From NCBI GenBank assembly GCA_050186825.1, contig JBFWYD010000031.1:1-43998 (forward strand): a DNA stretch of 43,998 nucleotides, in the 5' to 3' direction. Source of the stretch: Planctomycetota bacterium (GTDB taxonomy: Bacteria; Planctomycetota; J058). Position 1 is the first letter of the stretch; each line of letters begins with the position of its first letter. Positions 3,342 through 18,433 of this stretch are shown here, piece by piece. Both the position numbers and the translations under genes were made by a program. The notes under the pieces were generated by a model. That model had not been told where the DNA came from, searched no databases, and saw only the letters and a list, made by a program, of their open reading frames with translations.

Positions 3342-4111
3342 GTGACCGAGTCGAGCCCCCCGGCCCCCGAAGGCGTGGACTGGTTCCAGCCCGCCCGGAT
3401 CACCCCGCGGATCTTCCAGAACGGCTACATCACGGCGCGCCAGGGCGAGCGGCTGCTCGGGCTCGGCGTCACGCACCTGCTCAACCTCGACCTGCCCTAC
3501 GGCACGAGCGGGATCGTGATGCCGGCAGGGCTCACGGTGTGGGAGCTCCTGCTCCACGACATGGCGCCCATGTCGCCAGATGACGCTCGGCGAGTGGTCG
3601 CGCTCTTCCAGCGCGCCCTCGATCTCGAGCAGGGGCGGATCTACGTCCACTGCAACGCGGGCCTGAGCCGCTCGCCCACGGCCGTATGGCTCTACCTCGT
3701 CGCGGCTGGCTGGGAGCCGGACGAGGCCCGTCGCACCATCGGCGCCGCGGCCAAGCACCTCGACGCGCCCGACCCGATCCTGGTGGACCGACTCGACCTC
3801 GACGACCTGCGCGCCTGGCCCGAACCCCGCGCTGGGAGCTGTGGCGGCAGGGGGCGGGCACCTACCCGAACGCGCTGGCGGCCTTCGGGCGCGCAGCGCC
3901 CGGGGGCCGCCAGCTCGACGCAAGCGGTGTGGCCGAGCGCAGCTCGGCCTCCGCGCCAGCGAACCTGCTCGAGGTCTGCGAGGACGAGGGGACCGCGCGA
4001 GCGGCCCTGGAACGGCTCGAGGCGAAGCAGCGCGAGTACGAGGCGCGGGGCTTCCCGCATCGTGTCCGCTTCTGGGTCGAAGCCTCGCGACCGCCCAAGG
4101 AGACGACATGA
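3342..4111 (+). CDS. dual-specificity (Cys-based, CX5R) protein phosphatase. The reading frame switches from frame 0 to frame +2 near 3826-3845, and the C-terminal ~90 aa end at TGA 4109-4111 (frameshift, authentic or a sequencing error)
   Basis: The N-terminal 165 aa contain the DUSP/PTP P-loop VHCNAGLSRSPT (HCxxGxxRS/T) in a DUSP-like context. Frame 0 then runs stop-free as Arg/Pro junk to 4937. A protein-like sequence (WELWRQGAGTYPNALAAFG...LERLEAKQREYEARGFPHRVRFWVEASRPPKETT) resumes in frame +2 and ends exactly at an ATGA overlap with the next gene. Confidence 0.55.
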
Positions 4112-4791
4112 GGGTCCTGGCCATTGGCGACATCCACGGCTGCTCCGCCGCCCTCGACGCCCTGCTCGAGGCGGTCCAGCCCGGCCCCGACGACCAGGTG
4201 ATCCCGCTCGGCGACTACGTGGACCGCGGGCCCGACAGCAAGGGCGTGATCGAGCGCCTGATCGCGCTCCAGGGCGCCACGAACCTGATCCCCCTGCTCG
4301 GCAACCACGACCAGATGATGCTCGACGCCCGGAGCGGCGACGCCGACAAGCTCTGGTGGATCGACGACTACGGGCGCAAGACCCTGGCCTCCTACGCGAC
4401 GCCCTTCGAGCGCGGCTCGCTCGAGACCGTGCCGCCCGAGCACTGGACCTTCCTCGCGGGCTGCCGCGACCTCCTCGAGACCGACACCCACGTGTTCGTC
4501 CACGCCAACCTCTACCCCGACCTCGAGCTCGCCGACCAGCCCGTGTTCATGACCCGCTGGGAGTCCCTGAGCGCGGACCTCTCCGCGGCGCACTGCTCGG
4601 GCAAGACCATGGTCTGCGGACACACCAGCCAGAAGTCGGGCCGGCCCCTCGACCTCGGCCACGCGGTGTGCATAGACACCTACGCCCACGGCGGCGGCTG
4701 GCTCTCCTGCCTCGACGCCTCCAGCGGTCGGCTGTGGCAGGCGAGCCAGGCGGGCGAGCTCTGGACGGGTTGGCTGCACGAGCGCTGCTGA
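4108..4791 (+). CDS. PPP-family Ser/Thr metallophosphatase (bacterial ApaH/PrpA-like calcineurin-fold phosphoesterase)
   Basis: 227 aa starting MRVLAIGDIHGC. It carries GDYVDRG and GNHD(Q) motifs plus downstream His residues (VHANLYPD, GHTS) in canonical PPP motif order. An AAGGAG RBS lies 6 nt upstream of the ATG, and the ATG overlaps the upstream TGA (ATGA). Confidence 0.85.
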   Translation: MRVLAIGDIHGCSAALDALLEAVQPGPDDQVIPLGDYVDRGPDSKGVIERLIALQGATNLIPLLGNHDQMMLDARSGDADKLWWIDDYGRKTLASYATPFERGSLETVPPEHWTFLAGCRDLLETDTHVFVHANLYPDLELADQPVFMTRWESLSADLSAAHCSGKTMVCGHTSQKSGRPLDLGHAVCIDTYAHGGGWLSCLDASSGRLWQASQAGELWTGWLHERC

Positions 4792-5120: not shown

Positions 5121-5156
5121 TCCAAACGACAACGGCCGGCCCCGAGGGACCGGCCG
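5121..5156 (-). terminator. intrinsic terminator-like hairpin (cggccggtccc tc ggggccggccg, about 11-bp stem) followed on the minus strand by TTGTCGTTTGG
   Basis: Lies ~35 nt downstream (minus strand) of the serine recombinase stop codon. It is a GC-rich stem with a short loop followed by a T-rich tract, a rare feature in this GC-rich genome. Confidence 0.45.
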
Positions 5157-5188
5157 CTGCCGCGAGATCGAACGAAACCCAGAGTTCC

Positions 5189-6241
5189 TTAGCCGACCGA
5201 GGACGCCGCGAGGCTCTGGTGGCGCGAGCGGGTGTCGCGCGCCTTGGCCGCGGGCTGCTCGACCGGGGCCGGCTTGGCCGGGGCCGGCTTGGCGGGCGGC
5301 TCCGTGGCCGCCGGCTGCTGGTCCTCGGCCTCGCCGGTCGCGGCCTCGAGCTCGAGGTCCTCGAGCTCGTCCTCGTCGTCGTCGCCCTTCTTCCCGCCCT
5401 CGCGGCTGCGCTTGTTGTTCGCCTTGATCAGCTGCTGGGCCTTGTTGAAGGTGATCGGGGCCACGATCGGCTCGTGGCGCCCCTTGACGTGGATGTCCCC
5501 GAAGTGGACGCGGCCGATGTAGGTGTCGTTCTTGAGGATCCAGGAGACCCCCGCCCGCGACCACTGCTTGCTCCGCCGCGTCCTGAGGCCCTGCTCGTCG
5601 AGGAGCTTGATCAGCCGCTTCATGCTGCGCAGGCGCAGGTACTCGCGAAAGATCAGCTTGACGACCTCGGCCTCCACCTCGTCCGGCACCAACATCACGC
5701 CCTCGCTCGAGCGCTTGTCGTAGTCGCGCCGGTAGCCGTAGGGAGCGGGGCCGCTCTGGTGCTTGCCCTGGCGGGCCCCCTCCTCGCGACCCTTCAGCAG
5801 GCGCTGCGCGATCTCGCGCTTGCGCTCCACCTCGTCGCTCTTGCGCGCCGCGACCTTCTTCGGCTGGCGCGCCTTGTAGTCCTCGACGATCGCCCGGAGC
5901 TGGCGGGCCGTGTCGTCGTTGGCGACGAGCACCCGCTTCCCGGCGTTCCGCAGCTCCTCGACGGGGTCGAAGGTGAGCGTGCTGCACAGCCCGCGGAGGC
6001 GGCAGCCGGAGACGATCAAGACCGCCTCCCAGTCGCTCTCCTCCATGTCGTCCAGGATGTTGACGAGCCCTGCGCGGGTGTCCTGGGTGGGGGTCAACCC
6101 GTGGTCGGTGTGGACCTTCTCCAGCGCGAGCCCGGTGTGGGAGGCGAAGGCCTCCAGTCTTCGAGTCTGCTCCTCGAGCGAGGGGAAGCCCCCTTCCTCC
6201 TGCTCGAGGTAGCTGACTCGGGCGTAGGCGACGACCTTCAC
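5189..6241 (-). CDS. serine recombinase. It has a resolvase/invertase-type catalytic domain plus a large-serine-recombinase 'recombinase' domain, lacks the zinc-ribbon/coiled-coil tail, and ends in a Lys/Pro/Ala/Asp-Glu-rich C-terminus
   Basis: The N-terminus MKVVAYARVSYLEQ matches the YxRVS(T)xxQ catalytic serine motif, and the downstream R..L.......D.L.V...RL.R block is present (TRAGLVNILDDMEESDWEAVLIVSGCRLRG). The recombinase-domain signatures APYGYRRD and ILKNDTYIGR follow. The protein is 350 aa with an acidic/KPAPA tail. The GTG start lies 7 nt after the MamK-like gene's stop. Confidence 0.8.
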   Translation of the reverse strand: MKVVAYARVSYLEQEEGGFPSLEEQTRRLEAFASHTGLALEKVHTDHGLTPTQDTRAGLVNILDDMEESDWEAVLIVSGCRLRGLCSTLTFDPVEELRNAGKRVLVANDDTARQLRAIVEDYKARQPKKVAARKSDEVERKREIAQRLLKGREEGARQGKHQSGPAPYGYRRDYDKRSSEGVMLVPDEVEAEVVKLIFREYLRLRSMKRLIKLLDEQGLRTRRSKQWSRAGVSWILKNDTYIGRVHFGDIHVKGRHEPIVAPITFNKAQQLIKANNKRSREGGKKGDDDEDELEDLELEAATGEAEDQQPAATEPPAKPAPAKPAPVEQPAAKARDTRSRHQSLAASSVG

Positions 6242-6248
6242 CGGTCGG

Positions 6249-7337
6249 TTAGCGCAGCTGCTCCCAGGCCTCGACCGGCATGTCGTAGGCGATCTTGAGC
6301 GCCCCGTTCGCGCCGGCGTAGACGGGCTCCTGCACCGGACGGACCTTGCCGCCGCCGTAGCCCTGGAGCGCCTCCTCGAGCGCGCGGTCGAGGCCGTGGA
6401 TGCGGCTGCCGCCGCCGGCCAGGATCACGTTGTTGCGCAGGCGGTCCTGGAACTCGGGGTCGAAGGTCGAGATCAGGCGGTCGACGGCCTCGACGATCGG
6501 CTCGACGATCCGGCTGCAGCCCTTGCGGACCTCGGCGGTCACGTCGAAGGCCTTGGGGCGGCCGCGCACGGGGAAGGTGACCATCACGGGCTCGGCGGCC
6601 TCGGTCACGAAGGCGTGCTTCTCCTTGATCTCGCGCACCATGTTGATGTTGAAGCTGGCGTCGGGGCAGCGGCCCTTGAACAGCTCGAACAGCTGGTGGT
6701 CGATGAAGTCGCCGGCCTGGGTCAGCGTGACCTGGTCGTCCTCGTCGGGCATCGAGCCCTTCATCCGGCAGAGGTCGGTGGTCCCGGCGCCGATGTCGAT
6801 CACCAGGCAGTCGTGGAGCCGGTCCATCCCGTAGGCGACCGAGAAGGGCTCGCTGCAGATCACCACCGAGTCGAGCACCTCACGGGCGGCCTCGATGATC
6901 GACTGCTTGTTGTGGATCGAGGCCTGCGCGGGGCAGCCGATCACGCCGTAGACGAGCTGGCCGGGCTTGGGGCGGGCCAGGCTGACCGCGTGCTGGATCA
7001 GGGCGCGCGCGGCCTCGAGGTTGGCGCTCACGTCCTCGCTCGGGGCGCCGGTCGAGTCGGAGTGCTTGATCACGCCCTTCTCGAGCGGGCGGTAGAGGTC
7101 GAGGGCCAGGCGGTGCGCCATGGCGTCGTCCCCGAACAGCACGTCGCGCTGGAGCAGCTTGCGCGAGACCACGTCGCGCGGGTAGCCGACGATGCTGCTG
7201 ACCGTCTCCCGCACGCCGTTGCTGGCCGAGATCGAGGTCCGCGAGGTGCCGAGGTCGATGCCGACGTAGAGGATCGAGTCGCTCTCGCCCTTCCGGTAGT
7301 TCAGGCGGTCCTGCGCCGCGCTCTTCTGCTTCTCCAT
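6249..7337 (-). CDS. actin-fold ATPase, MamK-like (MreB/ParM/MamK superfamily)
   Basis: Actin-fold signature motifs appear in order: phosphate-1 VGIDLGTSRTSI, connect-1 GVIGCPAQAS, phosphate-2 LVIDIGAGTTDLC, and adenosine/connect-2 ILAGGGSRIHGLDRALEEAL. Local blocks (IVGYPRD, CSEPFSVAYGMDRL, DEDDQVTLTQAGDFIDHQL) resemble MamK more than MreB or ParM, as far as I can recall. The start is ATG 7337-7335 (M27 of the tracker ORF) with a GGGGGAAG RBS 6 nt upstream. Confidence 0.85.
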   Translation of the reverse strand: MEKQKSAAQDRLNYRKGESDSILYVGIDLGTSRTSISASNGVRETVSSIVGYPRDVVSRKLLQRDVLFGDDAMAHRLALDLYRPLEKGVIKHSDSTGAPSEDVSANLEAARALIQHAVSLARPKPGQLVYGVIGCPAQASIHNKQSIIEAAREVLDSVVICSEPFSVAYGMDRLHDCLVIDIGAGTTDLCRMKGSMPDEDDQVTLTQAGDFIDHQLFELFKGRCPDASFNINMVREIKEKHAFVTEAAEPVMVTFPVRGRPKAFDVTAEVRKGCSRIVEPIVEAVDRLISTFDPEFQDRLRNNVILAGGGSRIHGLDRALEEALQGYGGGKVRPVQEPVYAGANGALKIAYDMPVEAWEQLR

Positions 7338-7392
7338 GATGTCTTCCCCCTGGGTGTTCAGCTCTGTTGGGTTCGTCGTCGTCTCGTGCGGC

Positions 7393-8166
7393 CTACGCCC
7401 GACGGCGGAGGCCAAGGTTCTGGTCGATCAGTCCGTTGAGCAGGCCACCCCCCCGGCGGCGCGCTCCCGAATTCGTTCCCAGCCCGCTGGCGGCGGGCGG
7501 CGGCGGCGGCGGCTCAGGGACCGCCGCTGGCGCGGGCGGCGGCTCCGCCCCGCGCGGCTCGGCCGCGTGGGTCCGCCCCGCCGCGGTCGACTGGCCCGGG
7601 TTGCGGAGCTCCACGTTGGCCCGCACCAGGCCCGCCAGGAGGCCCCCGCCGCCGCGCGGCATGGGCCGCGTCGTGTGTCCCGCGCCCTGGCTGGGCGCGC
7701 CCAGGCCCGCGGGCCGGCTCGGCGCCGCAGCCAGCGGCGTCGCGGCGACCGGCGCAGCGGCGACCGGCCCGTGCCCGAGCGGCGCGGCGACCGGCCCGTG
7801 CCCGAGCGGCGCGGCGACCGGCCCGTGCCCGAGCGGCCCGGCGACCGGCGCCGCGGCGGCGCGCTCGAGCCGCGCGGCGGCGCGCTCGAGCCTGGCCGCG
7901 ACCGCGGCCAGGCCCTCGCGCTCGCTGGCGCGCTCGGCCAGGCGCGCCTGCGCCTCGGCCAGCCGCTGGGCCAGCGCGTCGCGCTCGGCGCGCAGCCGGT
8001 CCAGCTCCGCCTGCGTCGGGCCCCCGCGGAGCTCGGCGCGCAGGCGCGCCACCTCCTCGCGCAGCCGGTTCCGCTCCTCCGAGAGGCGGGCGATGATCTC
8101 CACCGCGGCCCGCGGCAAGTCGCGGGTGCGGGAGAGGATCGCGGGGCTGCGCTCGAGGGTGGCCAC
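7393..8166 (-). CDS. coiled-coil plus Ala/Pro-rich repeat protein (candidate filament-associated adaptor)
   Basis: A GTG start follows a GGAG that overlaps the upstream stop (TGAGGAGCGAACACGTG). The N-terminal ~110 aa form a heptad-like coiled coil (ERNRLREEVARLRAELR...LAEAQARLAERASEREGLAAVAARLERAAARLERAAA). Then come three tandem GHGPVAAPL repeats, an Ala/Pro linker, and two copies of a GGGLL.GL...N..LR motif. Only the 3' ~775 nt of the 509-aa tracker ORF look protein-like. Confidence 0.5.
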   Translation of the reverse strand: MATLERSPAILSRTRDLPRAAVEIIARLSEERNRLREEVARLRAELRGGPTQAELDRLRAERDALAQRLAEAQARLAERASEREGLAAVAARLERAAARLERAAAAPVAGPLGHGPVAAPLGHGPVAAPLGHGPVAAAPVAATPLAAAPSRPAGLGAPSQGAGHTTRPMPRGGGGLLAGLVRANVELRNPGQSTAAGRTHAAEPRGAEPPPAPAAVPEPPPPPPAASGLGTNSGARRRGGGLLNGLIDQNLGLRRRA

Positions 8167-8177
8167 GTGTTCGCTCC

Positions 8178-9221
8178 TCAGCGGCCCTTGTGGCCGGGGC
8201 CGAAGCCGAAGCCGAAGGCGCCGAACTCCTGCTTGGCCCGGCGGACGGTGCTCCGCCGCGACTCGTCGGGCTCGGCGGCCTTGGCCGGCGCGGGCGCGGC
8301 GGGCTCTTCGGCCACGACCTCTGGCTCGGGTTCGGCCTTGGGCTCGAGCTCGGCCACGCGCTCGGCCAGCTGCGCCCGCTCCAGGGTCAGCTCGGCCAGC
8401 TGCTTGGCGTCGGCCTCGCGGGCCTGGTGCAGCTCGGCCGCCTCGCGGCGGGCCGCCTCGGCCTGGGCGCGCAGCGCGGTCAGGTCCTCGGCCAGGCTCG
8501 CGCAGCGCTTGAGGTAGGTGTCGCGCTCCTCGCGGAACTGGTCGCGCTCGCGGCGCATCCCGTCGCGCTCCTGGCGGAGCTGCTCGCGCTCGCTCGCCAT
8601 GGCGTCGCGCTCGTCCACGGTCCGGTCGCGCTCGTCTCGGAACTGCTCCAGGTCGTGGCGCAGGGCCTCGACCTCGCTCTCGAGCCGGTCGCGCTCGCGC
8701 TCGAGCTTGTCCCGCTCGGACTGGATCGAGCCCAGGTTCCCCTCGAGGTCCGCGTTGCGCCCCAGCTCCTCGTCCAGCCGCTCGCGCGCGCTGGTCTGGA
8801 GCCGCTTGAGGTTCTTCTCCAGCGAGCCGATCTGCGCGCGCAGCCGGGCCCGCTCGGCCAGCAGCTCGCGGATGTCCTGCTCCTGGAGCTTCTCGCCCGC
8901 CTCGCGGCCGAGGGCCTGGCACACCTCGTCGACCGCCGCCTGCAGCCGGCCGCGCTCGGCCTCGACCAGGCCCTTGGCGTGCTCGAGCTCCTTCTTCTCC
9001 TTGCCGAGCTTGGCGTTCTCCTGGAGCAGCCGCTCCACCCGCCGCTGGGCCGCGTCCTCGTCGCTGCTCGCGCCCTCCTGCTTGAGCTTCCCCAGGAGCT
9101 CGATCAGCTGGCTGCGCTCGATCACGCGCACGTTGTCGACCTTGGCCTTGCGCAGCTCGCGCACGTTCAGCGTGCGGGTGGCGGAGCGCAGCGCGCCGGA
9201 CAGCTCGTCGTCGAAGCTCAT
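8178..9221 (-). CDS. long coiled-coil protein with acidic Pro/Glu-rich C-terminal region and a GFGFGPG terminal motif
   Basis: 347 aa from ATG 9221-9219 with a strong RBS GGAGGAGGAAGG. About 250 aa of continuous heptad-rich E/R/L/Q/D coiled coil (ERDKLERERDRLESEVEALRHDLEQFRDERDR...) are followed by EPKAEPEPEVVAEEPAAPAPAKAAEPDES and RRAKQEFGAFGFGFGPGHKGR. The upstream 139 codons of the tracker ORF are Arg/Ala/Pro junk. Confidence 0.6.
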   Translation of the reverse strand: MSFDDELSGALRSATRTLNVRELRKAKVDNVRVIERSQLIELLGKLKQEGASSDEDAAQRRVERLLQENAKLGKEKKELEHAKGLVEAERGRLQAAVDEVCQALGREAGEKLQEQDIRELLAERARLRAQIGSLEKNLKRLQTSARERLDEELGRNADLEGNLGSIQSERDKLERERDRLESEVEALRHDLEQFRDERDRTVDERDAMASEREQLRQERDGMRRERDQFREERDTYLKRCASLAEDLTALRAQAEAARREAAELHQAREADAKQLAELTLERAQLAERVAELEPKAEPEPEVVAEEPAAPAPAKAAEPDESRRSTVRRAKQEFGAFGFGFGPGHKGR

Positions 9222-9283
9222 GGCCTTCCTCCTCCAGGTCCGCCCGGTGACCTCCCGGTCCCGAGCGCTCGCTGTGTTCCTCT

Positions 9284-9335
9284 CGGAAAATTCATGAGTC
9301 GGCTTGTGGGGGATTTCGAAAAAATCACGAGGCCG
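9284..9335. promoter_or_regulatory. AT-rich patch with the near-palindrome GATTTCGAAAAAATC, in the divergent promoter region between the coiled-coil/MamK-like operon (minus) and the ABC transporter operon (plus)
   Basis: This is the only markedly AT-rich 50 nt in a ~390-bp divergent intergenic region (ggaaaattcatgagtcggcttgtgggggatttcgaaaaaatcacgagg). The dyad symmetry suggests an operator or -10/-35 context. No convincing TTGACA/TATAAT pair could be assigned. Confidence 0.25.
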
Positions 9336-9615
9336 CTCCCAGAGCGGGTCCGCGCGCATCGCCGGGGCCTCGGGGCCGTCGCTTCGCCGCACAGGTCCTC
9401 CCCGCCAGGGCCCATCGCTCCGCCCCCGCGCGGGAGTCGATTGTTCAGGCGCATCCGACAGGGATGTGTGCAGTGTTCGGCCGACTGCACTGAGGCGACC
9501 GCCCATCGCCCTGGGCGCCGCTCGGCGCGCGGACCCACCCATCGCGGCGGGCGATGGGCGAAGGGCGCGGGTCGCCGCCGCCTGTGGGGACGACCCCAGG
9601 GAATAAGATCCCCGC

Positions 9616-11433
9616 GTGATCGAGGTCCAGGCCCTCACCCAGCGCTACGGGAGCTACGAGGCGGTCCGCGAGCTGAGCTTCGCCCTGGGCGCGGGGGAGG
9701 TGGTCGGCTTCCTCGGCCCCAACGGGGCGGGCAAGTCGACGACCCTCAAGGTGATCGCGAGCTTCCTGGCCCCGAGCGCCGGCCGGGTCAGCGTCGGGGG
9801 CTGCGACGTGGCCCGCGACCCCCTCGGGGTCCGGGCCCGGCTGGGCTACCTGCCCGAGCACTGCCCCCTCTACGAGGAGATGCTCGCGCGCGAGCTGCTC
9901 GACTTCGCCGCGCGCGTCCGCGGCCTGAGCCGCGCCGAGCGCGCCGCGGCCCGCGCGCGCGTGGTCGAGCGCTGCCGGCTGGAGGAGGTGATCGAGCGCC
10001 CGGTCAGCGACCTGAGCAAGGGCTACCGCCAGCGCCTCGGGCTGGCGACCGCCCTCCTGCACGACCCCCGGATCCTGGTCCTCGACGAGCCGACCAGCGG
10101 GCTGGACCCGAACCAGGTGCTCGAGATGCGTGCGCTCGTGCGCGAGCTGGGCCAGGAGCGCACGGTCCTGTTCAGCAGCCACGTGCTCTCCGAGGTCGAG
10201 GCCACCTGCGAGCGCGTGGTCGTGATCCACCGCGGCCGCCTGGTCGCGGACGACGCGGTGGCGAGCCTGGCGCGGCGGATCACCGGAGGGGCGCTCGACG
10301 TCCGTGGGGCGGAGGCCGAGGCGGTCGCAGGCGTCCCAGGCGTGGCCGAGGCCGTGGCGCTCGCCGACGGGCGGGTGCGCGCGCGGCCGCGGGCCGGCGT
10401 CGAGGACCTCGCGGCGCGGCTGTTCCGCTGGGCGGCCGGGAGCGGCCGGGTGCTCGTGGAGATAGCGCCGCAGCGGGTCACGCTCGAGGACGTGTTCGCG
10501 GCGCTGACCGCGGATTCGAAGGCGGTCGCTCCGCAGGCTACGGGATCAGGAGCCGCGGAGGCGGCTCTCCCTAGCGCGGCGCAGAGCCGCAGAGCCGCAG
10601 AGGGGCCCTCGCAGGAGCCGGCGCGCGACTCGGAGACGCCGGATTCGCAGGCGGCGGCTACCGAAGCGGGGGGGACAGGAGCTGCGAAGGCGTTGGATTT
10701 CAGCGCAGAGATCGCAGAGAGCGCGGAGATCGGTGGGTGTGAGCGAAGGCGCGGCTCCGATCCGTCGGGTGAAGGAGAGAAAACGAGGGAGAGAGACTCG
10801 GATTCGGATTCGGCTTCGGACTCCCCCCCGGCCTCGGATGCGACCCCTCGCTCACACCCCGCGATCTCCGCGATCTCTGCGATCTCTGCGCTGAATATCA
10901 ACGCTGTCGCACCCCCTCACGACCCCGAGCTCGCAGCCCGCTCCGGCTGTGAGTCTCCGGGCTCGGTCTCGGACTCGGACTCGGTCTCGGACTCGGACTC
11001 GGACTCGGACTCGGTCTCGGACTCGGTCTCGGTCTCGGACTCGGACTCGGCCTCGGCCTCGGCCTCGGCCTCGGACTCGGCCTCGGCCTCGGCCTCGGAC
11101 TCGGACTCGGTCTCCGCCTCGGACTCGGACTCGGACTCGGACTCGGACTCGGACTCGGACTCGGTCTCGGACTCGGACTCGGACTCGGACTCGGACTCGG
11201 ACTCGGACTCGGACTCGGACTCGCCCTCGGACTCGCCCTCGGACTCGGACTCGCGCCCTCGCTCACACCCACCGATCTCCGCGGACTCTGCGATCTCTGC
11301 GCTGAATAACAACGCTGTCGCACACCCTCGCGATCCCGACCTCGCAACTCGCCCCCGCTCAGAGTCTCCGGCCTCGGCCTCGGCCTCGGCCTCGGACTCG
11401 GACTCGGCTTCGGACCCGGAGCGCCCCACGTGA
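9616..11433 (+). CDS. ABC transporter ATP-binding protein (GldA-like; ABC-2/gliding-motility-associated type) carrying a ~300-aa low-complexity C-terminal extension encoded by a repeat element
   Basis: Walker [11 protein letters not shown]-loop, ABC signature LSKGYRQRL, Walker [13 protein letters not shown] and H-loop SSHVL are all present. The ATPase fold ends near LEDVFAALT (about nt 10530). The ORF then continues without a stop through an inverted-repeat element and (GACTCG)n arrays that encode (SD)n, up to TGA 11431-11433, which overlaps the GTG of the next gene. Confidence 0.8.
10540..11430. repeat. composite dispersed repeat (copy 1): unit A (~10540-10750), unit B (~10845-10975), (GACTCG)n-type hexanucleotide microsatellite arrays (~10958-11260 and ~11378-11425), and a second partial unit B (~11255-11385)
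   Basis: Near-identical sequence (>90% by eye) recurs at 17735-18400. Unit A is gcagaggggccctc...gattcgcaggcggcggct(a/g)ccgaagcggggg...gttggatttcagcgcagagatcgcagagagcgcggagatcg. Unit B is cgc(t/c)cacaccc(a/g)ccgatctccgcg.actctgcgatctctgcgctgaata(t/a)caacgctgtcgcac.ccctc.cgatccc and occurs 3 times in the window. The tcggactcggac tracts are directly visible. Confidence 0.9.
10699..10895. repeat. ~50-bp imperfect inverted repeats flanking a ~95-nt loop (potential large hairpin of the MITE/RPE type)
   Basis: The left arm (ttcagcgcagagatcgcagagagcgcggagatcggtgggtgtgagcgaagg) and right arm (cctcgctcacaccccgcgatctccgcgatctctgcgatctctgcgctgaa) are reverse complements with about 3 mismatches. The same architecture recurs at ~17897-18127. 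Confidence 0.8.
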
Positions 11434-16477: not shown

Positions 16478-16486
16478 CTTCGACGC

Positions 16487-18429
16487 GTGCCCCGCTTCGT
16501 CCCCTGCCGGATCAGCCACCTCCTCGGCGAGCTGAGCGCGCTCCTGACCGAGCGCGACCGCGGGGCCTTCTACGCGCTGGCGCGCATCGTCGAGGCCTAC
16601 TACCACCACGCCGCCGGCGCCCAGACGCGCATGGCGGAGGAGCTCTACGCGCCCTTCGACCCCGACAGCGAGACCGTCCCGACCGTGGCCCCGCTCGGGG
16701 CCGACCCGGTCGGGCGGCTCTACGGCTGGCTGGACGGGCTGTTCGAGCGGGCCAACTTCGAGCGCGTCTCCCAGGACACGCTCCTCTCCGAGGCCGACCA
16801 GGAGGTGCTGACCACCTTCGAGATCGACCCCGACCTGCGCTCGGTCGAGCGCCTGGCCGTCTACGTGCGCGGGAGCGGGACCAAGGCCGTGCGCCTGCGC
16901 AAGGCCAAGGCCTTCTTCCGGCTCGAGGAGGCGGAGCAGCCCACCTACCGCCGCGTGGCGATCGTGGTCCGCACCGCGCACGACCCCTACGTGCTCCTGA
17001 AGATGTTCAAGGACGTGCCGCGCACCGACGTGGAGCTGCTGCTGCCCACCGTGCGCGTGAAGATGAAGCTCCTCGACAAGCTCAAGCTCTCGGGCACGGG
17101 CGGCGCCGCGGCGCTCTCGACCTGGAAGGTGCTCCGCCTCGCCTACACCTACGCGCCCACCATCACCAAGCTCCTGGCCGTCCCCTTCAAGCTGTTCCTG
17201 CTCCCGATCGCCTTCCTTGTCACGGCCTTCTACGGCGGCAAGACGGTCCTCGACTACGCCAAGATCCGCAGCAGCTACGTGACCGCGCTCGCCGAGCACC
17301 TCTACTCCATCACCCTCGCGAGCAACCGCGCCGTGCTCGGCCGCCTCGCCGCGCAGGCCGGCGAGGAGGACACCAAGGAGGCGCTGATCGCCTACGCGCT
17401 GCTGCTCGGCGCCCCCGAGGGGCTCTCCGCCGCCGCCCTGCGCGAGGCCGCCGAGGCCCTGGTCTGGGACCGCTACCGCGCGCGCGTCCGCTTCGACGTG
17501 GAGGACGCCCTGCGGAAGCTGAGCGAGCTCGAGCTGATCGAGCCGCTCGACGAGCAGCCAGGTGGCCCCGTGGCGCGCGCGGTCGACCTCGACGAGGCCC
17601 TTCGCCGCGTGGACAAGTCCTGGGACGACCTCTACAGCCCGCCGCCCCGCGAGACGCGGCTCTGGCGGCTGCTGCGGCGGAAGGAGCTCGCCGCGGGGGA
17701 GACTGCCGATTCGGAGGCGGTGACTGGCGAGGCGGAGGGATCAGGAGCTGCAGGGGCGGTTCAGCCCAGCGCAGCGGCGCAGAGGCGCGGAGACGCAGAG
17801 GGGCCCTCTCTGGAGCAGGCGCGCGACTCGGAGACGCCGGATTCGCAGGCGGCGGCTGCCGAAGCGGGGGGAACAGGAGCTGCGCAGGCGTTGGATTTCA
17901 GCGCAGAGATCGCAGAGAGCGCGGAGATCGCCAGGAGTGAGCGGAGGGGGGGCTCCGCAGCCCAGTCGGATCGGGACGAACGGACGGGCACGGGCACGGG
18001 CACGGGCACGGGCACGGGCATCCCAATGTCGAACTCGGACTCGGACTCGGACTCGCCCTCGGACTCGAAGTCGCGCCCTCGCCCACACCCACCGATCTCC
18101 GCGAACTCTGCGATCTCTGCGCTGAATAACAACGCTGTCGCACACCCTCGCGATCCCGGCCTCGCAACTCGCCCCGGCTCAGAGTCTCCGGCTTCGGCTT
18201 CGGACTCGGCCTCGGCCTCGGCCTCGGACTCGGACTCGGACTCGGTCCCGGACTCGGATTCGGATTCGGATTCGGATTCGGATTCGGCCTCGGCCTCGGC
18301 CTCGGACTCGGACTCGGACTCGGACTCGGACTCGGATTCGGATTCGGATTCGGACTCGGCCTCGAACTCGGACCCTGAAGCCGCGTCGGAAGACCCTGAC
18401 GACGTGCGGCCGATCCGGACGGTGCCGAG

Positions 18430-18433
<4 letters not shown>
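16487..18433 (+). CDS. DUF3754-like (TMEM143-like) membrane-associated protein. The core ends near nt 17700 and is followed by a ~240-aa low-complexity tail encoded by the second copy of the dispersed repeat
   Basis: The core of ~400 aa has a conserved-looking central hydrophobic hairpin (LLAVPFKLFLLPIAFLVTAFYGGKTVLDYAKIRSSYVTALAEHLYSITLASNRAVLGRL). The family call is from recollection only. The ORF continues stop-free through unit A, (GGGCAC)6 encoding TGTGTG, unit B and (GACTCG)n encoding (SD)n, to TGA 18431-18433, which overlaps the TTG start of the downstream kinase. Confidence 0.55.
17735..18400. repeat. composite dispersed repeat (copy 2): unit A (~17735-17950), inverted-repeat arms (~17897-17940 and ~18076-18127), (GGGCAC)6 (~17985-18020), unit B (~18073-18200), and a (GACTCG)n-type array (~18190-18370)
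   Basis: Direct nucleotide comparison with 10540-11430; the reading frame relative to the element is the same as in copy 1. Confidence 0.9.

Follow-up and report, generated by a model that had tools for sequence, protein, structure and literature searches.

The window analysed here, a 43,998-nucleotide stretch of DNA from an uncultured Planctomycetota bacterium (contig JBFWYD010000031.1), contains a compact set of four genes on the minus strand, the last of which encodes a protein derived from a serine recombinase and lies directly behind a gene for an actin-like protein. We refer to these genes, in the order in which they are read, as A, B, C and D:

8178 to 9221, minus strand: gene A, encoding a 347-residue coiled-coil protein with a C-terminal FGFGFG sequence and a basic end (called from frames of GC content at third codon positions (GC3), open reading frames (ORFs) and orthologues).

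7393 to 8166, minus strand: gene B, encoding a coiled-coil protein of low complexity, 257 residues long, that carries two GGGLLxGLxxxNLxLR motifs at its C-terminus (called from GC3 frame analysis and ORFs).

6249 to 7337, minus strand: gene C, encoding an actin-like protein of the MamK family, 362 residues from its ATG (NCBIfam NF040964).

5189 to 6241, minus strand: gene D, encoding the serine-recombinase-derived protein, 350 residues, with a GTG start (called from the ORF, Pfam and an identical database protein).

5122 to 5167, minus strand: GC-rich, terminator-like hairpin immediately past the D stop codon, its stem ~17–21 bp long (RNA fold of -52.1 kcal/mol, z = -2.7).

Assignment of gene C to the MamK family rests on a score of 430.6 bits against NF040964 (cutoff 400), as opposed to an E-value of only 0.16 for the ParM family model NF010498. 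Gene D begins 7 nucleotides after the stop codon of C on the same strand, and its product is 100% identical to a protein from a Planctomycetota metagenome-assembled genome (MAG) that NCBI labels 'recombinase family protein' (P0001; MGE0710061.1). A preliminary description of this DNA, made from its letters, had placed an ORF of 350 codons at 5189 to 6241, and this ORF proved correct, on the minus strand and with GTG as its start codon. Nearly all loci of this type carry an AGGGGGA Shine-Dalgarno-like motif 6–10 nucleotides before the start of the actin gene (positions 7338 to 7360 in the window). D has no such motif and starts with GTG in all ten close loci, a combination that fits production of a filament protein in excess over an adaptor or regulator. 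We take A, B, C and D to be co-transcribed, and translational coupling of D is probable.

D-family loci were collected from species-representative genomes and metagenome contigs and then searched with the four proteins of the window. In all 17 loci that include enough upstream sequence, the gene immediately before D is the actin gene, in most cases no more than 24 nucleotides away, and wherever the contig reaches far enough the actin gene is in turn preceded by A and B (orthologues of A were found in 10 loci and of B in 9). Gene order and orientation are identical in 19 of 19 loci, and the contigs that carry the operon are chromosomal, with lengths of up to 947 kb. The position of D is kept while identity among the actins falls from 88% to 61%. 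A search in the reverse direction, starting from actin homologues of at least 71% identity, found D in both of two cases (L024 and L025, actin identity 71–74%), although PF07508, the Recombinase domain, is the only part of D detectable there. At 61% actin identity (L006) the actin gene is followed by a form of D that has the Recombinase domain only, and D is absent from three loci with actin identities of 63–68% (L021, L022 and L023), two of which, L022 and L023, have a small lipoprotein gene after that for actin. In L021, found in a Planctomycetes MAG on a contig of 7 Mb, genes for a ParA-like ATPase and a B-like coiled-coil protein precede the actin gene (63% identity; L021:4435-7095), close to rpmH, which hints at a connection of this actin family with positioning or partition. 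Comparison of B from the window with the B-like protein of L021 by BLASTP was not significant (E 0.18), and only a short C-terminal motif is alike by eye.

Pfam returned nothing but coiled-coil noise for the product of gene A. Across loci, the B proteins share a C-terminal GG(L/F)LxxL(I/V)xxNLxLR motif, present in two copies in B of the window, and the A proteins end in FGFGFG and a basic stretch, also in loci without D. These C-terminal motifs are candidate actin-binding or membrane-binding peptides.

The product of D can be divided into four segments:

5867 to 6241, minus strand: residues 1–125, N-terminal domain of resolvase type, in which the active site is degenerate (aligned to 33 control integrases; predicted local distance difference test score (pLDDT) above 90).

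5762 to 5866, minus strand: residues 126–160, variable linker and a long helix (132–157) equivalent to helix E (alignment and AlphaFold).

5396 to 5761, minus strand: residues 161–282, Recombinase domain PF07508, net charge +11 (Pfam, invariant columns and the ratio of nonsynonymous to synonymous substitution rates (dN/dS)).

5192 to 5395, minus strand: residues 283–350, disordered and fast-evolving tail (pLDDT, dN/dS and a survey of tails).

Pfam recognised a weak Resolvase match in D (residues 3–160, E 6.6e-9) and a clear Recombinase match (residues 189–274, E 1.5e-18, 67.4 bits against a cutoff of 21.1), with no zinc ribbon (Zn_ribbon_recom, PF13408), no helix-turn-helix (HTH) and no other domain; among NCBIfam models only CcrB, XisF and IS607 appeared, all far below threshold. 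An AlphaFold model built from an alignment of 82 sequences (mean pLDDT 86) comprises an alpha/beta N-terminal domain (1–125), a short, poorly ordered linker, the helix at 132–157 and the Recombinase domain (~160–282), and the chain beyond about residue 283 is of low confidence or disordered (pLDDT below 70). The architecture anticipated in the preliminary description, a resolvase-like N-terminal domain joined to a Recombinase domain, the zinc ribbon, coiled coil and HTH all being absent, is therefore borne out by both Pfam and AlphaFold, and the Pfam comparison it had proposed gave Resolvase and PF07508 matches and no PF13408. No known complete C-terminal DNA-binding domain of an ordinary resolvase was found in D by Pfam; the Recombinase domain occupies the position of the HTH.

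When the model was compared with the Protein Data Bank (PDB) using Foldseek, the top matches were the Bxb1, SPbeta SprA, phiC31 and A118 integrases (E 5e-13 to 1e-8), and a sequence search of the PDB agreed in placing large serine integrases best. Both kinds of search match the Recombinase domain of D to the DNA-bound Recombinase domain of A118 (4kis). Integrases bind DNA sequence-specifically through this domain, the complex of A118 integrase with DNA being an example. The linker and Recombinase domain of D together have a net charge of +17. The charge of the N-terminal domain was considered as a sign of lost DNA contact, and the difference between the family and the controls (mean -5.3 against -3.6) is too small to use.

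With the large serine recombinases (Bxb1, phiC31, A118/LI, SPbeta SprA and TP901-1) D shares the order of N-terminal domain, helix E and PF07508, as well as the W..(V/I)..IL.N..Y.G signature of the serine-integrase Recombinase domain. It differs from them in lacking the zinc ribbon and coiled coil, in being ~200 residues shorter, in its degenerate active site, and in having neither att sites nor a mobile-element context, being fixed instead in a cytoskeletal operon. With the small serine recombinases (Tn3 and gamma-delta resolvases, Hin and Gin) it has the fold of the N-terminal domain and the YxRxS motif in common, but it lacks HTH_7, R71 and D67, carries a Recombinase domain instead, and is accompanied by no res- or hix-like sites that we could find. 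D falls within the serine recombinase superfamily, yet by these features it belongs with neither the large nor the small group.

The short length of D is a property of its family. About 80 close relatives were found in the protein database (E 1e-41 to 1e-154), nearly all from metagenomes or Planctomycetota MAGs and 190–390 residues long, the sole exception in length being P0078, a protein of 586 residues with a different, non-recombinase architecture. Beyond these close relatives scores fall abruptly to E 6e-18 or weaker, and the matches are ordinary zinc-ribbon integrases of 450–600 residues. When 1.84 billion cluster representatives were searched with the family profile, ~140 clusters were recovered at E<=1e-30; almost all are 130–350 residues long and consist either of the N-terminal domain plus the Recombinase domain or of the Recombinase domain alone. 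Examples of the modularity of this family include the 210-residue P0070 of L006, which is a Recombinase domain alone downstream of actin, and P0078 and P0080, in which the same Recombinase domain is joined to unrelated N-terminal regions or XRE-type HTH modules. That D might be a truncated or frameshifted pseudogene, which the preliminary description had named as a possible objection, can be dismissed, as D is not truncated and its close relatives are all short and intact.

The profile search also recovered uncharacterised relatives of ~260–290 residues (E 1e-30 to 1e-50 against the family profile) that, like D, have two domains and no zinc ribbon. Unlike D, they keep the canonical Y-R-S-R-D/S-R-R signature, and they lie at a greater distance than the degenerate clade to which D belongs. 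On the basis of this signature they may be true recombinases.

Two observations concern individual orthologues of D. P0050 (L019:1251-2113) seems to be frameshifted in the N-terminal domain with the Recombinase domain still in frame, which may mean that the N-terminal domain has truly decayed or that the assembly is wrong. Separately, all six members of one sub-clade (P0049, P0052 and P0054–P0057) end in AA-COOH (TSAA, IVAA or INAA), resembling ssrA-like ClpXP degrons.

Conservation within D is concentrated in the Recombinase domain. Across 34 D-family sequences that are 43–74% identical overall, the stretch RLLxGRExGAxxGKHQSGPAPYGY...WSRAGVSWILKNDTYxGRVHFG...FNKxQ..I..NNKR is near-invariant; its first motif, RLLxGRExGAxxGKHQSGPAPYGY, begins in the segment of residues 126–160 and extends into the Recombinase domain. 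Comparison of D with nine orthologues gave dN/dS values of 0.16–0.41 for the Recombinase domain, 0.32–0.90 for the N-terminal domain and about 0.7–1.7 for the tail, values that are to be read only relative to each other because the extreme GC3 (~0.95) compresses dS and inflates absolute dN/dS, although the ranking is robust. Because it is near-invariant, has the lowest dN/dS and is found alone or in other fusions, the Recombinase domain is, as judged from these alignments, the functional core of D.

The tail behaves differently. It contains an acidic run, DDDEDELEDLELE (residues 287–299, positions 5345 to 5383), and the sequence PAKPAPAKPAP (residues 316–326, positions 5264 to 5296), which is AKPAP twice over and derives from two copies of a 15-nucleotide repeat; its net charge is -8, and the terminal RDTRSRH motif is common to the nearest relatives only. 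Tails across the family vary from 4 to 113 residues and from -20 to +19 in net charge. The nearest relatives of D have Lys/Ala/Thr/Pro-rich, H1-like tails with charges of +11 to +19, whereas the same region is mostly acidic in D. Both the acidic stretch and PAKPAPAKPAP had been noted in the preliminary description; the DNA-binding tail of the H1/AlgP type that was read into them is not supported, given the charge of -8, a dN/dS of ~1 and the lack of conservation. The tail is a fast-evolving, predicted disordered appendage with no conserved DNA-binding domain.

The composition of D is native to its surroundings. Its GC content is 70.0%, that of the actin gene is 69.1% and that of the window is 75.8%, several other stretches of the window being similar to D, and the GC3 of the stop-to-stop frame that holds D (5189 to 6424) is 0.95, matching that of neighbouring genes. 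The atypically low GC content first given for D (~67%) thus reduces to a trivial dip, and the native GC3 and codon usage rule out D as foreign DNA by composition. D is flanked in the window by ordinary chromosomal genes (for an ankyrin protein, phosphatases, an ABC transporter and a subtilase), and neither a tRNA nor an integrase was found near it in the window.

These observations bear on the view that D is the decaying remnant of a phage or other mobile element whose adjacency to actin is fortuitous. Three distant relatives of D (39–44% identity; L005, L007 and L020) have no actin, and the surroundings of L005 and L007, with methyltransferases, a tyrosine integrase and many small ORFs, are phage- or element-like, which suggests a mobile-element origin for the family. 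D itself shows a different pattern: all orthologues have intact ORFs, the Recombinase domain, under purifying selection, is near-invariant, the position of the gene is kept from 88% to 61% actin identity, GC3 is native, and no flanking repeats, tRNA or element genes are present. A phage origin of D was also considered and rejected: IMG/VR contains no close relatives, its best matches being ordinary integrases of at most 31% identity, and PHROGs returned only a generic integrase family. We regard it as very improbable that D is such a remnant, and the proposal to that effect in the preliminary description is contradicted by the absence of tRNA, att-like repeats and element genes nearby, by codon usage and by conserved synteny.

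We compared the active sites of 63 members of the D family and 33 canonical integrases from the same search, using gamma-delta resolvase as the ruler for numbering. D keeps Y6, R8, S10 (within YARVS), D36, R45 and R68, and has the substitutions D67C and R71G, such that the expected DRLxR block reads CRLRG and the six compared positions R8-S10-R45-D67-R68-R71 read R-S-R-C-R-G. The catalytic domain had initially been taken to be intact, which is true of the YARVS part and not of the domain as a whole. R8 is present in 33 of 33 controls and 57 of 63 family members, R45 in 33 and 35 (Cys in 19 of the family), D67 in 30 and 32 (Cys in 26), R68 in 33 and 60, and R71 in 33 and 13. The S10 nucleophile is found in every control (33/33); in the family this position is Ser in 30 of 63 and Thr in 28 of 63, and otherwise Asn, His, Gly or a gap. 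All six residues occur together in 30 of 33 controls and in 1 of 63 family members, D not being that one, and Y6 and D36 are present in all 63. In Tn3 resolvase, mutation of Y6, R8, S10, D36, R68 or R71 lowers cleavage by ~1000-fold or more (R71A ~1000-fold), mutants of D67 or R45 lose ~50–300-fold (D67A/N ~50-fold), and all of these mutants fail resolution in vivo (PMC2794168). In addition, the alignment of the D family contains length-variable insertions at the start of helix E, which would be hard to square with the precision of the interface on which active serine recombinases rotate. Taken as a whole, the D family clearly appears, from its alignment, to be no longer selected for recombination chemistry.

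Cysteines occur at positions 45 (19/63) and 67 (26/63) of the family alignment, often paired as xxCCRx; the corresponding residues in the window are R56 and C80. The pocket that was once the active site thereby gains a cysteine or two, and a redox or metal role for them is conceivable.

Could D nonetheless be an active resolvase or invertase that uses Ser or Thr at position 10, for example in resolving dimers at an actin-type partition locus? Resolvase genes do adjoin par loci on plasmids. Y6, R8, D36 and R68 are well conserved in the family, position 10 is nearly always Ser or Thr, and the existence of two-domain relatives of ~270 residues with an intact YRSRDRR signature means that the absence of the zinc ribbon need not block catalysis. 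Such activity would have to be reconciled with the loss of R71 in 50 of 63 and of D67 in 31 of 63 family members, with Thr as the nucleophile in 28 of 63 when all 33 controls have Ser, with the indels inside the helix that forms the rotation interface, and with the occupation of the same position in L006 by a version that has the Recombinase domain only. Moreover, a search for att, res, hix or inverted-repeat sites in the operon and the 44-kb window found nothing above the GC-rich background (76% GC gives many chance matches), and the search for candidate recombination sites that had been proposed at the outset likewise yielded no outstanding repeat pair in either. Order and orientation of the genes, too, are the same in all 19 loci, on contigs that are chromosomal and extend to 947 kb. 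We consider an active enzyme distinctly improbable. Of the earlier idea that D is the resolution component of a partition module, the cytoskeletal, partition-like neighbour remains, and the resolution chemistry is disfavoured.

Several DNA segregation systems place an actin gene in front of a tightly coupled gene for a small DNA-binding protein, namely ParM-ParR, AlfA-AlfB and Alp7A-Alp7R. ParR binds the centromere, connects the DNA with the filament and acts as repressor of the operon that encodes it. D resembles ParR, AlfB and Alp7R in being encoded right after, and tightly coupled to, the gene for an actin-like ATPase, although ParR has a ribbon-helix-helix fold and D, being derived from a recombinase, is unrelated to it. 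The A-B-C-D operon also differs from type II ParMRC systems in that its actin belongs to the MamK family rather than to ParM, its location is chromosomal and it has two extra coiled-coil genes.

With moderate confidence, we propose that D is a domesticated pseudo-recombinase that would act as the DNA-binding subunit, whether adaptor or regulator, of a MamK-like actin module. We infer its DNA binding, its contact with actin and its cellular role from the strict linkage of its gene, its architecture and fold, its degenerate active site and its pattern of selection. On this proposal, a large serine recombinase would have lost its zinc-ribbon and coiled-coil domain while retaining the long helix, the dimerisation-type fold of its N-terminal domain and, most importantly, the Recombinase domain with its sequence-specific DNA binding. 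The family, freed from the constraint to cleave DNA, would have been recruited into the chromosomal A-B-C-D operon in one clade of uncultured Planctomycetota. There, D might serve as an adaptor through which the actin filament system is linked to the nucleoid or to a DNA site; alternatively or in addition, it might autoregulate the operon, a dual role as in ParR. A domesticated recombinase was among the origins suggested in the preliminary description, and the purifying selection on the Recombinase domain, the degenerate active site and the fixed place in a conserved operon all accord with that suggestion. A more specific form of the proposal, which we put forward only tentatively and think unlikely as it stands, is that D is kinetochore-like: it would bind a chromosomal site and, together with A and B, couple DNA to the dynamic MamK-like filament, making the operon a chromosomally encoded, actin-driven machine for DNA segregation or positioning, with a dead recombinase as its adaptor.

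The region upstream of A is where a DNA target of D might be sought. Alignment of 8 loci revealed one conserved feature there:

9281 to 9325, minus strand: AT-rich bipartite element upstream of A, consisting of TTTTTTCGAAA, ~35 nucleotides and TTTTCCGAGA.

Its consensus is TTTTTYCRAAA, ~35 nucleotides and TTCCGARA, often followed by CACTAGAYC (window; L001, L003, L009, L012–L014 and L016); the last box forms the palindrome CTAGATCTAG in L024 and L025 and is poorly matched in the window. The bipartite element has six matches in the window, compared with 0.35 expected. In L016 it also precedes a small convergent gene, and related elements occur in loci without D. Because it is found in such loci and before another gene, the element is most simply a promoter. 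It is probably the promoter of the operon, and probably of a clade-specific type, and at best a weak candidate operator. A sigma-70 promoter scan gave no matches, and a search for a centromere-like repeat array at the operon found the conserved bipartite element only. A D-specific operator made up of TTTTTYCRAAA, TTCCGARA and CACTAGAYC was considered and dropped, as the elements occur without D and the third box is poorly matched in the window.

On a rival account, D is a transcription factor and nothing else, its Recombinase domain acting on the operator of A-B-C-D or on other genes with no physical link to filaments. The element upstream of A includes palindromic boxes (TTTCGAAA, and the palindrome of L024 and L025), the GTG start and lack of a strong Shine-Dalgarno-like motif, in which D differs from the actin gene, fit a regulator of low abundance, and there are relatives of D in which this Recombinase domain is joined to XRE-type HTH modules. 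However, the upstream boxes are also present in loci without D, and CACTAGAYC is poorly matched in the window despite the near-invariance of the Recombinase domain. Regulators of single operons, moreover, are rarely coupled so strictly to the end of the operon over such divergence, though ParR is. We judge this account unlikely, although less so than an active recombinase.

Our own proposal of a domesticated, DNA-binding partner of actin has to be set against several findings that speak against it. First, D is among the better preserved members of its family: of the six residues on which Tn3 resolvase crucially depends, five (Y6, R8, S10, D36 and R68) are present and only R71 is missing, and position 70 is an Arg. 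Since Y6, R8, D36, R68 and a hydroxyl at position 10 (Ser or Thr in 58 of 63) are conserved across the family, part of the old active-site pocket is still constrained, and this pocket could serve in binding phosphate or the DNA backbone, in regulation, or in residual or altered chemistry. Second, relatives of ~270 residues with the intact signature exist at greater distance, and the missing zinc ribbon alone is therefore no proof of inactivity. Third, the dN/dS values carry only relative weight. Fourth, a DNA target of D was not found, the sole conserved candidate being the upstream element that is also present in loci without D. Finally, because operons of this type whose actins are at 63–68% identity lack D, D is an accessory rather than a core component.

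The actin of this operon has a described counterpart. Saltatorellin, a MamK-like actin of Saltatorellota, forms filaments in E. coli and in Magnetospirillum, and has no known partner or cargo; the report describing it mentions recombinase 0 times (bioRxiv 10.1101/817700). The primer used to clone saltatorellin encodes the C-terminus YWEQLK, and gene C ends in xWEQL(K/R), a shared C-terminus that suggests that the two belong to the same actin family. Like gene C, which passes the MamK-family cutoff, the MamK of magnetotactic bacteria belongs to this group, but no magnetosome genes are present here. A search of the literature for pairing of recombinase and actin genes found none, the papers on saltatorellin and BeeR making no mention of a recombinase neighbour, and in the literature searched there was no precedent for a serine integrase exapted to a non-catalytic DNA-binding protein beside actin. 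If our proposal is correct, D would be an example of such exaptation and would represent a new adaptor fold for actin-based positioning systems, and the MamK-like actins of non-magnetotactic Planctomycetota, which are of the saltatorellin type and have no known function, would gain a molecular partner and a candidate cargo, DNA. A practical consequence is that automatic annotation as 'recombinase family protein' would wrongly mark D loci as mobile elements.

Two further features of the window lie outside the operon. Past its end, at 3342 to 4791 on the plus strand, are genes for a dual-specificity phosphatase-like protein and a calcineurin-like metallophosphoesterase; in L001 the flanking genes encode Ser/Thr kinases. 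Elsewhere, the ORF at 9607 to 11433, for the ATPase of an ABC transporter, and an ORF at 16478 to 18433 on the plus strand share ~0.7 kb at 84–91% identity in their 3' parts (10576 to 11433 and 17681 to 18433). The shared block contains 12-nucleotide tandem repeats encoding (Ser-Asp)n and a repeated 20-residue motif, and could be a repeat tail common to both ORFs, or else a non-coding repeat misread as an ORF.

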